IMG/VR virus record: IMGVR_UViG_2547132127_000004
DNA: 23,278 nucleotides
Reading direction: 5' to 3' (one strand)
From: a virus
Taxonomy: Duplodnaviria > Heunggongvirae > Uroviricota > Caudoviricetes
In this document: positions 5,828-21,488 of the stretch, piece by piece
Layout: every line of letters starts with the position of its first letter
Numbering within the stretch: the first letter of the stretch is position 1
The notes under the pieces: generated by a model
Databases searched by the model: none
What the model was told of the DNA's origin: nothing
Seen by the model: the letters and a program-made list of their open reading frames with translations, nothing else
Position numbers and translations under genes: made by a program

Positions 5828-5870
5828 TGAGGTGTACTGGCAATAGCGGACACTACCATTTGTTCTTTTT

Positions 5871-6689
5871 TTAAGCAGCCATCTGATGATATTTTTCCCT
5901 GAAGGCTGCCGGGGAGATATTCCCCTGACGAGAGTGACGACGCTGACGATTGTAGAAAATCTCAATGTATTCCCGTATTACTGAGATGGCTTCATCCCGG
6001 TTATTAAAACGATAGTGGCTCAGGCTCTCATTTTTCAGCGTTCCCCAGAAGCTTTCCATCGGAGCGTTGTCGTAACAGTTACCTTTACGCGACATTGATG
6101 TTTTCAGACCAAACTGCTCCTGTATGACCCGGTAATCGTATGCGCAGTACTGTGAACCTCGATCAGAGTGGTGGATTAGCCCGGCAGGTGGGCGCTGGCT
6201 CCTGAGCGCCATAAACAGGGCTTTACCTGTCAGCTCTTTTGTCATGCGCTCTCCCATGGCGTAGCCGACAATTTCACACGTATAAACATCTTTGATGCCA
6301 GCGAGGTACAACCATCCCTCCTGTGTGGCAACATACGTCAGGTCCGCCACCCAGACCTGATTTGGTGCTGTAGGAGCGAACGTCTGGTTCAGCAGATTTG
6401 GCGCAACTGGCAGATTGTGGTTCGGGTTCGTAGTCGCTCTGAACTTGCGTTTCTGCTTACAGCGTAGCCTCAGCTCCTTACGAAGACATGCCAGTCGGTC
6501 ACGACCAACGATGATGCCATTCTCTGCCAGCTCCGTCTGGAGCCGCCGGGTTCCATATGTTTCGCGAGTGCGGATATGTGCCACCTTAATCTCCAGTTTT
6601 AGCCGCTCATCACTTTGTTTTCTGTCTGAGGGTTCATGCTGTACCCAGTTGTAATAACCGCTCCTGGATACACCAAATACCTGACACAT
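5871..6689 (-). CDS. IS3-family transposase OrfB (DDE catalytic domain); normally expressed as an OrfAB frameshift fusion
   Basis: 272 aa from the first ATG. Integrase-core/DDE-type sequence (...WVADLTYV...HHSDRGSQY...YDNAPMESFWGTLK...). The true frame extends upstream to the slippery site. Confidence 0.8.
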   Translation of the reverse strand: MCQVFGVSRSGYYNWVQHEPSDRKQSDERLKLEIKVAHIRTRETYGTRRLQTELAENGIIVGRDRLACLRKELRLRCKQKRKFRATTNPNHNLPVAPNLLNQTFAPTAPNQVWVADLTYVATQEGWLYLAGIKDVYTCEIVGYAMGERMTKELTGKALFMALRSQRPPAGLIHHSDRGSQYCAYDYRVIQEQFGLKTSMSRKGNCYDNAPMESFWGTLKNESLSHYRFNNRDEAISVIREYIEIFYNRQRRHSRQGNISPAAFREKYHQMAA

Positions 6690-6724
6690 CGCTTCAATGG
6701 GAAATTGTTGTCGCCATTGTTCGA

Positions 6725-7027
6725 TTAACGCGTATTTTTCAGCGACTCCTGTGCAAAATACGCTGTTGCTTTTTTTAATATATCGCGCTCAAGGCGAGCT
6801 TCATTTAACGCCTTACGCAGTTGCAGAATTTCAGATTCCAGTTCAGCCACCGTGCGGGAACCAGGAGTACCGAGCCCTTTTCTGGCGGCGGTAACCCATT
6901 GTCCTAAAGTGCCTTCAGGAAGGGATAATCGGGAAGCGCCTTCACTGATCGAAAGTTGATTTTCAAGAACCGTTCTGACAGCTTCGGCTTTGAACTCTTT
7001 AGAGTAACGTTGGGTTTTTCTGCTCAT
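6725..7027 (-). CDS. IS3-family transposase OrfA (HTH DNA-binding part)
   Basis: 100 aa, MSRKTQRYSKEFKAEAVRTV..., leucine-zipper-like C-terminus, followed by the slippery A-run for -1 frameshifting into orfB. Confidence 0.8.
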   Translation of the reverse strand: MSRKTQRYSKEFKAEAVRTVLENQLSISEGASRLSLPEGTLGQWVTAARKGLGTPGSRTVAELESEILQLRKALNEARLERDILKKATAYFAQESLKNTR

Positions 7028-7302
7028 TATTAGCTCCTTCTGATGCCATTCTATTTCAGGAAGGAGTGTCCGTTAAACTCAGGCTACCTCAGTCAGCGCT
7101 GGAACGACGAGAAGCCAGAAACCATTCAACCACAATCCAGACCATCATCCGCAATCACCGTATCGAAAACTGGCTATGTGTTTTTCGACAGGTGAACCAT
7201 GAAATCAAAAATCAAATCGCTACTGGTCGCTGGTTATAACCACGGCTGGTTAAGTATTTCGTTTGTCGATTTCTGGTTTAAAAATCTCAATCTGAGGGAA
7301 TC

Positions 7303-20116: not shown

Positions 20117-20156
20117 GGTGTACTGGCAATAGCGGACACTACCATTTGTTCTTTTT

Positions 20157-20975
20157 TTAAGCAGCCATCTGATGATATTTTTCCCTGAAGGCTGCCGGGG
20201 AGATATTCCCCAGACGAGAGTGACGACGCTGACGATTGTAGAAAATCTCAATGTATTCCCGTATTACTGAGATGGCTTCATCCCGGTTATTAAAACGATA
20301 GTGGCTCAGGCTCTCATTTTTCAGCGTTCCCCAGAAGCTTTCCATCGGAGCGTTGTCGTAACAGTTACCTTTACGCGACATTGATGTTTTCAGACCAAAC
20401 TGCTCCTGTATGACCCGGTAATCGTATGCGCAGTACTGTGAACCTCGATCAGAGTGGTGGATTAGCCCGGCAGGTGGGCGCTGGCTCCTGAGCGCCATAA
20501 ACAGGGCTTTACCTGTCAGCTCTTTTGTCATGCGCTCTCCCATGGCGTAGCCGACAATTTCACACGTATAAACATCTTTGATGCCAGCGAGGTACAACCA
20601 TCCCTCCTGTGTGGCAACATACGTCAGGTCCGCCACCCAGACCTGATTTGGTGCTGTAGGAGCGAACGTCTGGTTCAGCAGATTTGGCGCAACTGGCAGA
20701 TTGTGGTTCGGGTTCGTAGTCGCTCTGAACTTGCGTTTCTGCTTACAGCGTAGCCTCAGCTCCTTACGAAGACATGCCAGTCGGTCACGACCAACGATGA
20801 TGCCATTCTCTGCCAGCTCCGTCTGGAGCCGCCGGGTTCCATATGTTTCGCGAGTGCGGATATGTGCCACCTTAATCTCCAGTTTTAGCCGCTCATCACT
20901 TTGTTTTCTGTCTGAGGGTTCATGCTGTACCCAGTTGTAATAACCGCTCCTGGATACACCAAATACCTGACACAT
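20157..20975 (-). CDS. IS3-family transposase OrfB (copy B)
   Basis: Differs from the copy A OrfB by a single residue. Confidence 0.8.
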   Translation of the reverse strand: MCQVFGVSRSGYYNWVQHEPSDRKQSDERLKLEIKVAHIRTRETYGTRRLQTELAENGIIVGRDRLACLRKELRLRCKQKRKFRATTNPNHNLPVAPNLLNQTFAPTAPNQVWVADLTYVATQEGWLYLAGIKDVYTCEIVGYAMGERMTKELTGKALFMALRSQRPPAGLIHHSDRGSQYCAYDYRVIQEQFGLKTSMSRKGNCYDNAPMESFWGTLKNESLSHYRFNNRDEAISVIREYIEIFYNRQRRHSRLGNISPAAFREKYHQMAA

Positions 20976-21010
20976 CGCTTCAATGGGAAATTGTTGTCGC
21001 CATTGTTCGA

Positions 21011-21313
21011 TTAACGCGTATTTTTCAGCGACTCCTGTGCAAAATACGCTGTTGCTTTTTTTAATATATCGCGCTCAAGGCGAGCTTCATTTAACGCCTT
21101 ACGCAGTTGCAGAATTTCAGATTCCAGTTCAGCCACCGTGCGGGAACCAGGAGTACCGAGCCCTTTTCTGGCGGCGGTAACCCATTGTCCTAAAGTGCCT
21201 TCAGGAAGAGATAATCGGGAAGCGCCTTCACTGATCGAAAGTTGATTTTCAAGAACCGTTCTGACAGCTTCGGCTTTGAACTCTTTAGAGTAACGTTGGG
21301 TTTTTCTGCTCAT
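21011..21313 (-). CDS. IS3-family transposase OrfA (copy B)
   Basis: Identical protein to the copy A OrfA. Confidence 0.8.
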   Translation of the reverse strand: MSRKTQRYSKEFKAEAVRTVLENQLSISEGASRLSLPEGTLGQWVTAARKGLGTPGSRTVAELESEILQLRKALNEARLERDILKKATAYFAQESLKNTR

Positions 21314-21488
21314 TATTAGCTCCTTCTGATGCCATTCTATTTCAGGAAGGAGTGTCCGTTAAACTCAGGCTACCTCAGTCATCGGGGATGCAGCTGCAAA
21401 ATTTTTTGCAACTGATACCTATATCAACGGAACAGGTGGTGTTGTGGAGAGGGATATTTGCAATTTTCCCAAGCGTGAAGCTTGCCTC

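Follow-up and report, generated by a model that had tools for sequence, protein, structure and literature searches.

How two apparently intact IS600-like elements in the same orientation (copies A and B), one of them standing directly between a lambda-type integrase gene and a primase-helicase module, came to lie in viral record IMGVR_UViG_2547132127_000004 was the question raised by the present locus. A preliminary description of the window (the whole stretch of 23,278 nucleotides analysed here) had seen a matching direct repeat around neither copy, and had accordingly proposed a deletion, an inversion or a replicon fusion. Based on comparisons with related genomes, it is highly probable that the locus is a defective lambda-like prophage of Shigella flexneri in which copy B and a third element, copy C, are plain insertions, and in which copy A is the scar of an IS600-associated deletion of ~12 kb, most likely produced by recombination between two copies.

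Chromosomal context and prophage boundary

The window is a segment of the S. flexneri chromosome carrying a defective lambda-like prophage at a secondary lambda attachment site between ygcO and ygcP. It begins inside an IS1 copy inserted in ygcU (1..168, minus strand), the terminal sequence of which we take to be the IS1 inverted repeat; PF03400 (DDE_Tnp_IS1) was matched in Pfam among the gene calls adjoining this end, and the homology to ygcU in E. coli begins at 169. The following region (169..4802, plus strand), comprising ygcU'-ygcS-ygcR-ygcQ and then a ygcP pseudogene on the minus strand, was 98% identical to E. coli NZ_CP148427, which carries ygcU-ygcP annotations, and 99.9% identical to the prophage-free relatives L030, L033, and L034. 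A lambda-type attL core (TTATTTATACTAAG) was located at 4803..4816 and is followed by the lambda P' arm. The bounds of this core were given by the homology to the prophage-free genome L030, which stops at 4816, and by that to L003, a prophage at lambda attB (ybhC) with an intact int, which begins at 4803. The empty ygcO/ygcP site reads TTATTTATCCAAAG, and the attR of the prophage, adjoining ygcO, would be expected to have a core like TTATTTAT(A/C)C(T/A)AAG, followed by ...GCGGTAGGTGATGCC.

To the right of attL lies a truncated integrase gene, int' (4889..5827, minus strand), which retains residues 45-356 and lacks its start codon and the greater part of the arm-binding domain. Its product matched the lambda Int chains 5J0N and 1Z1G in the PDB with E = 1e-203 (phmmer, chain residues 45-356), in agreement with the lambda-type int noted earlier to the left of copy A, and the gene was 99.9% identical to the intact int of L003, the truncation point being computed to lie at codon 45. 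An Int homologue, an att core, and a P' arm were thus all present at the prophage end, as in a lambda-type integration module, and the gene order attL, int (minus strand), then O-like, primase, nin, Q, lysis, nu1, A, W, and portal (plus strand) is that of the standard lambda map. While the retained part of Int, the P' arm, and the core at attL are essentially those of lambda, the integration took place at the secondary ygcO/ygcP site and not at attB beside ybhC, and the module is dead because Int is truncated and xis is deleted.

Identity and boundaries of the IS600 copies

Copies A and B start at 5828 and 20114, respectively, in the same orientation. They aligned with each other in a self-BLAST at 99.84% identity over 1268 bp with 2 mismatches (at 5926/20212 and 6923/21209), and thousands of E. 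coli copies annotated as 'IS3-like element IS600' matched them at 99% identity or higher, so that the pair of same-orientation IS600-like copies originally described was corroborated. The ends of the element were set by independent copies in other contexts (L003, L004, L007, and L041): over their full length, both A and B aligned at no less than 99.5% identity with annotated IS600 from four unrelated contexts, which gave an element of 1264 bp occupying 5828-7091 (A) and 20114-21377 (B). The previously assigned intervals of 5828-7095 and 20114-21381 therefore start correctly but end four bases too far. The extra bases common to both copies (GTCA) are flank, GTC being the target triplet at both sites, and the final A at 21381 is private to this window, with a C in every other assembly and in the E. 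coli empty site. The alternatives that GTCA represents a longer element or a gene-conversion tract were rejected, since GTC is native at both sites and the A at 21381 is absent from the other assemblies; the shared GTCA is thus a coincidence or a mild target preference, together with a private SNP or miscall at 21381. The ends of an IS accordingly need to be defined against independent copies before its duplications are read: the shared GTC and one private base had added 4 bp here, and the correct boundaries remove the oddity of two IS copies without target duplications.

The terminal inverted repeats of the element are imperfect, with 20 of the first 30 terminal positions matching and with the ends TGAGGT...ACCTCA (TG...CA). 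In copy A, orfA (6725-7027, 100 aa) and orfB (5871-6689) show a -1 frameshift layout, with an A7G slippery motif at element position 316, by which point the orfB frame has opened; the 385-aa OrfAB matched Pfam HTH_Tnp_1, rve, rve_2, and rve_3, and a programmed frameshift is annotated in RefSeq. Copy A additionally has a private L255Q change in OrfB. Simple insertions of IS600 were accompanied by 3-bp target duplications, namely CAG, GTG, and GAC in unrelated copies, GTC for copy B, and AAC for copy C. The length of 1264 bp, the inverted repeats, the orfA/orfB organization, and the duplications of B and C were all in good agreement with IS600 of the IS3 family. Copy A differs from typical IS600 in having no duplication, owing to its position at a rearrangement junction, and its GAT/GTC mismatch points to a secondary rearrangement and not to an element other than IS600.

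Copies B and C

Both B and C arose by ordinary transposition, each leaving a 3-bp target duplication. Copy B (20114..21377, minus strand) separates the 5' part of a Rha-like gene (19934..20113, plus strand; hypothetical in some annotations) from the right-hand duplication and the 3' part of the same gene (21378..21797, plus strand), and is bordered by a perfect 3-bp duplication, GTC at 20111-20113 and 21378-21380. The corresponding empty site has one GTC only and is uninterrupted in the prophages of 17 E. coli genomes, and the Rha-like gene is uninterrupted in L005 (6222-6818); copy B is therefore a simple insertion into this gene. The earlier statement that neither copy has a matching direct repeat hence holds for A (GAT versus GTC) and fails for B. 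The uninterrupted ancestral junction that had been suggested as a check was found in related genomes as a contiguous empty site for B, whereas the flanks of A lie ~12 kb apart in a related prophage described below.

A third IS600 copy, split by IS629 and overlooked in the preliminary description, is present near the right end of the window. This copy C (22883..23065, plus strand, inverted relative to A and B) is represented by the first 183 bases of its orfA end, the remainder lying beyond the window, and has its own duplication, AAC. It cuts a terminase small-subunit (nu1-like) gene after its 5' part (22678..22882, plus strand); the homology to L002 stops at 22883, and the remaining part of nu1 stands after IS elements in L020. 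Copy C is in turn interrupted by the end of an IS629 copy (23066..23278, minus strand; duplication CAC), which is 100% identical to the sequence annotated as 'IS629 ORF2' on pCP301.

Copy A as the probable scar of an internal deletion

Copy A (5828..7091, minus strand) appears intact and has no target duplication, with GAT on its left and GTC on its right. Its left flank runs on as intact int in L003 and L001. Its right flank is the remnant of an O-like helix-turn-helix replication gene (7092..7195, plus strand), of which the final 104 bases remain and the 5' part is deleted; from 7092 on, the window aligned with L006 and L040, in which the O-like gene extends upstream as ...CTACCTGAACG/GTCAGCG, and this flank runs upstream into an O-like gene that is intact in 289 E. 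coli genomes as well as in L006 and L040. No xis was found in the stretch from int' to the O-like remnant, which contains only IS600, and the pair required for excision, a complete int and xis, was not present, Int beginning at residue 45.

L040, an E. coli relative of this prophage integrated at the same ygcO/ygcP att site, contains both flanks of copy A in the same order and orientation as here. On the same strand, positions 4746-5829 of the window correspond to 1-1084 and positions 7083-8414 to 15234-16571, so that the flanks are ~14.2 kb apart, or ~12.2 kb without an IS100. Two marks expected of a deletion by recombination between direct IS copies were thus observed, namely non-matching half-duplications on one IS (GAT/IS600/GTC at copy A) and collinear flanks parted in a relative by DNA that is missing here (L040). 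Since the two flanks share an att site, an order, and an orientation in L040, copy A most plausibly represents the scar of an IS600-associated internal deletion. Although the preliminary description correctly called for at least one IS-associated rearrangement, which is located at copy A, the supposed junction of int with unrelated sequence was not upheld, as in L040 a single prophage carries both int and the O-like/toprim module. For the same reason an internal deletion is the best reading of the event, in preference to the inversion or replicon fusion that had also been considered.

In the mechanism that we propose, one IS600 would have inserted into int at GAT and a second, in the same orientation, into the O-like gene at GTC; the two direct repeats would then have recombined homologously, excising the DNA between them and leaving a hybrid IS600 with half of each duplication on either side. 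Such a deletion would have removed int codons 1-44, xis, the early-left operon, N, the cI/cro/cII immunity region, and most of the O-like gene. With int, xis, and the immunity region lost, the prophage can presumably no longer excise, repress, or induce, and would be locked in the chromosome. The arrangement at A recurs, at 99.95% identity or higher, in five or more complete S. flexneri assemblies. Each half of the junction occurs elsewhere with another partner: the int'/IS600 half joins an IS1 fragment and ycaK-focA-pflB in S. flexneri SFBU1023 and strain ECMA0423, and the IS600/GTC/'O-like half joins the late region of another prophage in the IMG/VR prophage contig L042. These different partners are consistent with recombination among IS600 copies.

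An ancestor with two IS600 copies at these positions, each with its own duplication, was not found in the E. coli complete genomes, IMG/VR, or the JGI metagenomes, and the two-copy route is thus inseparable from a deletion adjacent to a single copy. The ancestral or reciprocal junctions would read ...CTACCTGAACGGTC/IS600 and IS600/GATTGCGATTCG... A chimeric query for them yielded, from the E. coli complete genomes, no more than non-contiguous pieces that had been joined, and exact and gapped patterns for IS600-GAT-int 5' part and for O-like 5' part-GTC-IS600 were absent from IMG/VR as well as from the JGI metagenomes. No SNP pattern indicating a hybrid element, with left and right parts from different parents, was readable in IS600, as the variable sites were few and differed between assemblies of the same lineage. 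A look-up of the exact int'-IS600 fusion ORF showed that one record only carries that call. An IS600 in the integrase gene of O121 STEC (H5) was rejected as the ancestral state, because the integrase is a different one, located at tRNA-Arg, and the element has a normal GAC duplication.

Alternative explanations

The same junction could in principle have arisen from a single IS600 in int or in the O-like gene, by loss of DNA from one of its ends driven by the transposase or by an IS-excision enhancer, with no second copy involved. This route, which we consider unlikely, would account for the failure to find a two-copy ancestor in the databases named above and for an int'/IS600 half-junction that is common to several lineages while its other side varies. 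On the other hand, the IS600-GTC-'O-like half-junction exists independently with another left partner, which is easier to understand if a separate insertion had occurred at GTC. IS3-family elements transpose by copy-out-paste-in, which does not routinely give adjacent deletions, and the excision-enhancer gene is, to our knowledge, described on STEC integrative elements and not in Shigella. The single-copy route is favoured by a report, citing Kusumoto (2011), that in STEC the enhancer causes the loss of regions flanking IS3-family elements, IS600 among them (PMC9397093). An exchange over a longer range, in which the IS600 in int recombined with one in the O-like gene of another prophage thereby fusing two unrelated elements and leaving the reciprocal product elsewhere, is less probable still. 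That these IS copies do join long-range exchanges is indicated by the int'/IS600 half at ybhC in SFBU1023 and by the IS600/'O-like half beside other late genes in L042; the tandem replication modules described below show the prophage to be mosaic, and IS600-associated inversions are documented in strain Sf8401 (PMC1550401). Nevertheless, int' and the O-like/toprim module are ordered and oriented exactly as in L040, a single natural prophage integrated at the same att site, the rest of the prophage keeps the lambda map through the head genes, and no reciprocal junction was found in the E. coli complete genomes, IMG/VR, or the JGI metagenomes.

Two further explanations can hardly be credited. 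Judged by geometry alone, with two intact same-orientation IS600 copies bracketing 13,022 bp, the stretch from 5828 to 21377 might have moved here as one composite transposon or, as had been suggested, might still behave as one. However, its outer flanks are GAT (5825-5827) and GTC (21378-21380), with no duplication round the unit; copy B is flanked by its own GTC/GTC, and E. coli prophages carry its empty site; the DNA inside the unit and that on its outer sides belong collinearly to one prophage; and the unit was met at this locus only among the assemblies examined. This candidate was rejected on the absent outer duplication, the features of B, and the collinear flanks, and the interval would be the surviving replication/nin/Q/lysis DNA instead of a mobile unit. 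Misplacement of IS copies or junctions during repeat resolution is similarly almost negligible as an explanation. The base at 21381 is unlike that of every other assembly and makes the flank of B mimic that of A (GTCA), hinting at a repeat-related miscall there, and SNPs inside the IS copies vary between assemblies. Against an assembly artefact, the sequence from A through the start of B was identical in five independent complete chromosomes, copy B was found with both flanks in three complete chromosomes, and short-read contigs stop exactly at the IS boundaries, as expected. An internal deletion between two IS600 copies remains the preferred account of copy A.

One observation that sits awkwardly with the deletion model is the identical int'/IS600 junction at another att site, ybhC, in SFBU1023. 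Beyond common descent and later IS-IS recombination, the base-identical recurrence of this junction at ygcO/ygcP and ybhC might reflect a strongly preferred IS600 target in lambda int, or the transfer of an int::IS600 allele between co-resident prophages, both of which seem to us rather improbable. If true, a preferred target would imply a recurrent, convergent locking-in of lambda-like prophages, whereas allele transfer would imply gene conversion, or integration helped in trans.

Content of the interval between copies A and B

The primase-helicase module reported earlier to the right of copy A was confirmed as a toprim primase-helicase gene of the type found in Stx phages (7303..10209, plus strand, 968 aa; Pfam Toprim_2 and a weak LAGLIDADG_3), a region held by the same 289 E. 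coli genomes. Comparison with a 626-aa orthologue delimited a 342-aa intein-like insert in its P-loop. According to Pfam matches, a partial nin region with ninB (10559-10969) and ninE (about 10966-11142) comes next, followed by a toxin-antitoxin cassette (together 10269..11745), in which an HTH_3 gene (11184-11492) and a Gp49/RelE-like gene (up to about 11745) are both on the minus strand. In E. coli this cassette stands either after ninE or upstream of Rha, and here it is likely a mosaic joint between two replication modules. The second lambdoid module (11849..19731, plus strand; Pfam), 98.5% identical to the prophage of E. coli CFSAN029787 (L002), encodes Ash/Rha, a 302-aa protein, a DnaC-like ATPase, a DnaB-like helicase, ninH, and Q, and in its later part four tRNAs (17217-17527), a holin, a lysozyme, and Rz. 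The presence of two tandem replication modules within 13 kb, one of the toprim type and the other of the DnaC/DnaB type, goes against a simple deletion model, and indicates that at least one further recombination shaped the prophage.

Relation to IS-mediated prophage decay in Shigella

The locus is ordinary, already known biology of Shigella prophage decay, and a textbook case of how insertion sequences immobilise and erode Shigella prophages. Expansion of IS600, and IS-mediated deletions and rearrangements between homologous IS copies, are known in Shigella (PMC7373316). As in the IS-mediated prophage decay described there (PMC7373316; PMC1550401), expanded IS600, IS1, and IS629 interrupt genes in the window, homologous IS copies are the substrates for deletion and rearrangement, and the remaining prophage lacks int, xis, and the immunity region. 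There is no substantive difference from these cases, the present locus being one specific, previously sequenced instance, although no paper describing this exact int'-IS600-O-like junction was found.

A comparable situation exists in S. dysenteriae type 1, where flanking direct IS600 repeats were reportedly found by McDonough and Butterton in 1999 to mediate amplification and deletion of the stx region. The defective Stx prophage concerned is, like the present one, a lambdoid Shigella remnant carrying IS600 (PMC7819885). The prophage described here differs in that it has no stx genes, occupies a different chromosomal site, and consists of different phage modules, and amplification or deletion forms were not seen in the assemblies examined. 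The product of recombination between A and B, with 13 kb lost, was likewise not encountered among those assemblies; it is possible in principle, and the direct copies A and B constitute a potential substrate for the loss of a further 14.3 kb.

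Boundaries of IS600 and simple insertion of copies B and C

Self-comparison of the window revealed one long direct repeat, 5828-7095 versus 20114-21381 (1,268 bp, 2 mismatches), together with an inverted partial copy of 186 bp at 22881-23066. A query with copy A, the first of the direct repeats, retrieved thousands of matches annotated as 'IS3-like element IS600 family transposase' from E. coli complete genomes, most of them at least 99% identical, and the long repeat is on this similarity IS600. The element boundaries were set by alignment to independent copies in five comparison loci of unrelated contexts (L003, L004, L007, L008, and L041), which aligned exactly to 5828-7091 and 20114-21377 and gave an element length of 1,264 bp. 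The starts and direct orientation reported in the preliminary description were thereby retained, whereas its length of 1,268 bp included an extra GTCA that belongs to the flank. The inverted repeats, ending in TG...CA, are imperfect, with matches at 20 of the first 30 positions. OrfA comprises 100 aa, an A7G slippery site lies at the point where the orfB frame is already open, and the IS600 proteins carry the Pfam domains HTH_Tnp_1 and rve. Copies A and B both lie on the minus strand, are apparently intact, and differ by a synonymous change in orfA and by L255Q in the OrfB of copy A.

With the corrected ends, copy B was found to be flanked by GTC on both sides (20111-20113 and 21378-21380), contrary to the earlier statement that neither copy has a matching direct repeat. 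The corresponding empty site was searched for among E. coli complete genomes by joining 400 bases from each side with a single GTC kept, and the resulting 800 bases were contiguous in 17 genomes (96-99% identity). At the base level, the empty site in one of the comparison loci, L005, reads CCCAGGGTC directly followed by CTCGGGG, with one GTC only. Copy B is a simple insertion into a Rha-like gene that follows the lysis genes. Base 21381 is A in the window only; C is found in all other assemblies of the locus (L020, L021, and L022), at the empty E. coli site, and in several contigs from short reads. The A, which gives copy B a flank resembling that of copy A (GTCA), is either a SNP private to the window or a miscall related to the repeat.

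Copy C begins at 22883 in the orientation opposite to that of A and B. It is likewise a simple insertion: in loci reaching past the window end, a complete IS600 interrupts the nu1-like terminase gene and is flanked by an AAC duplication. It is split by an IS629 having its own duplication (CAC), and these nested elements occupy 22883-23278. Since B, C, and the other IS600 copies encountered (CAG, GTG, and GAC) each have one, a 3-bp target duplication is the rule for IS600.

Prophage at a secondary attachment site

The IS1 in ygcU, whose end lies at 1-168, and the ygcP pseudogene also occur in closely related genomes that lack the prophage, CP026810.1 (L030) among them; in these genomes, ygcP is directly followed by ygcO, ygcN, queD, and cysJIH, and the empty ygcO/ygcP site reads TTATTTATCCAAAG. 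Homology to the prophage-free genomes stops at 4816, and homology to a prophage at the primary lambda site adjoining ybhC starts at 4803. The overlap (4803-4816) is the lambda-like core of a lambda attL, with the canonical P' arm behind it; the element is therefore a lambda-Int prophage in a secondary attachment site between ygcO and ygcP. A related prophage in E. coli Z1323CEC0013 has integrated there too, and its core retains the bacterial variant bases.

Copy A as the probable junction of an internal deletion

Copy A has GAT on its left side but GTC on its right, and the reported absence of a target duplication thus holds for this copy. The left flank encodes lambda integrase residues 45-356 (phmmer E = 1e-203 to PDB lambda Int chains) and is 99.9% identical to the intact int of L003, which continues past the junction as TGCGATTCG into the arm-binding domain and then xis. 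On the right, copy A adjoins the 3'-terminal 104 bases of an O-like helix-turn-helix replication gene and, beyond them, the gene for a 968-aa Toprim_2 primase-helicase; this flank runs upstream into the intact O-like gene in 289 E. coli genomes (CTACCTGAACG, then GTCAGCG). GTC is the native target sequence at the A and B sites alike. Judged from these flanks, copy A is a rearrangement junction, and the IS-associated rearrangement proposed previously is borne out here. Because the element sits exactly at the junction without a duplication, IS600 must have taken part in making it rather than inserting later into an older deletion.

Exact-protein look-ups assigned the window to Shigella flexneri and found the int'-IS600 fusion ORF only in CM001474.1, presumably M90T. 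The window was 99.95-99.98% identical over 20 kb to S. flexneri CP000266.1 and three further complete chromosomes (L010, L011, and L031), and all of these, as well as CM001474.1, are arranged alike from copy A as far as the beginning of copy B. Three complete chromosomes, namely CP000266.1 (L020), CP037923.1 (L021), and an NCTC assembly (L022), also include copy B together with its right flank. The breaks in draft assemblies coincide exactly with the IS copies, and an artefact of assembly was therefore excluded. We take CP000266.1 to be strain 8401, the genome of PMC1550401.

The preliminary description regarded int as joined to unrelated sequence. However, both flanks occur in the same order and strand in the Z1323CEC0013 prophage (L001 and L040), which occupies the same attachment site, has an int 98.5% identical to that of the window, and is ordered int, xis, early-left genes, kil, cIII, N, cI, cro, cII, O-like helix-turn-helix gene, toprim, ninB, and ninE. 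Window 4746-5829 corresponds to L040 1-1084 and window 7083-8414 to L040 15234-16571, so that the two flanks lie 14.2 kb apart there, or approximately 12.2 kb if an IS100 within the L040 int is not counted. The gene order further downstream, in the window and its extensions, remains that of the lambda map (nin, Q, tRNAs, holin, lysozyme, Rz, nu1, A, W, portal, protease, and capsid). In view of this collinearity, int and the primase-helicase module are not unrelated, and are best read as the two edges of one internal deletion rather than as the product of a fusion. The deletion would have removed int codons 1-44, xis, genes for recombination and regulation, the immunity region, and the greater part of the O-like gene.

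Origin of the junction

Each half of junction A was also found elsewhere with a different partner. A 40-mer across int'/IS600 was recovered from S. flexneri SFBU1023 and strain ECMA0423 (L007 4926-6391 and L008 556-2021), in both of which the other IS600 end is joined to a truncated IS1, with ycaK-focA-pflB following. The IS600/GTC/'O-like half occurs in an IMG/VR prophage contig (L042, IMGVR_UViG_2648501245_000003, 3999-14772), where the late region of another prophage adjoins it on the left; L042 is a variant of the window prophage in which IS911 joins toprim position 9130 to 13809, with 4.7 kb deleted. An inverted IS600 also lies in its Rz (window-equivalent position 19664). These differing partners suggest that the insertions at GAT and GTC were separate events joined later by recombination: IS600 would have inserted into int and, separately, into the O-like gene, and recombination between the two direct repeats would have yielded junction A. 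Flanks are shuffled in just this way by recombination between dispersed IS600 copies, in agreement with published descriptions of Shigella genomes (PMC7373316; PMC1550401).

A deletion adjacent to a single IS600 is a possible alternative, as neither the two-copy ancestor nor the reciprocal junctions were found in E. coli genomes, IMG/VR, or JGI metagenomes, and deletions of this kind driven by an excision enhancer have been reported for IS3-family elements in STEC (PMC9397093); the separate partners of the two half-junctions point to the two-insertion route. A long-range exchange that left its reciprocal product elsewhere is less likely. The locus is overall a standard example of how insertion sequences drive prophage decay, in Shigella genomes that have been published before, and the preliminary description was partly right in both observation and interpretation. 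One loose end is the int'/IS600 junction, which in SFBU1023 lies, base-identical, at the primary lambda site beside ybhC; its occurrence at both attachment sites may be explained by an insertion hot spot, by exchange between lambda-like prophages residing together, or by an inversion ending inside int.

The segment between copies A and B

Between the two copies, 13,022 bp of prophage DNA survive (7092-20113), and nothing points to past transposition of the unit bracketed by IS600. Recombination of copy A with copy B would remove 14,286 bp and leave int'-IS600-GTC-'rha; this form was not seen among the locus contexts recovered from assemblies, where rare forms would escape notice. This interval is a mosaic of a toprim/ninB/ninE module of the Stx-phage kind (7092-11143, 99% identical to L006) and a second module (11849-19731, 98.5% identical to L002) carrying Rha, a DnaC-like ATPase, a DnaB-like helicase, ninH, Q, tRNAs, and lysis genes. 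They are joined across a small toxin-antitoxin cassette (11184-11745), a plausible recombination joint, since in E. coli phages it occurs after ninE or before Rha. This single prophage remnant holds two complete replication modules in tandem (7303-16095), one with the toprim primase-helicase and the other with the DnaC-like ATPase and DnaB-like helicase.

The toprim protein (gene 7303-10209) carries a 342-aa insert (8416-9441) directly after the Walker-A motif GxxGxGK; this insert is missing from the 626-aa orthologue in L040. Starting with A-C-P, ending with T-H-N followed by T, and having a weak LAGLIDADG_3 match, the insert resembles an intein placed in the P-loop. One draft genome (L012, GCA_003572245.1, 10492-13173; window-equivalent past 17527) departs from the window right after the phage tRNA-Gly and has a 534-aa integrase-family gene in place of the lysis genes, which may represent an integrative element targeting the phage-borne tRNA.
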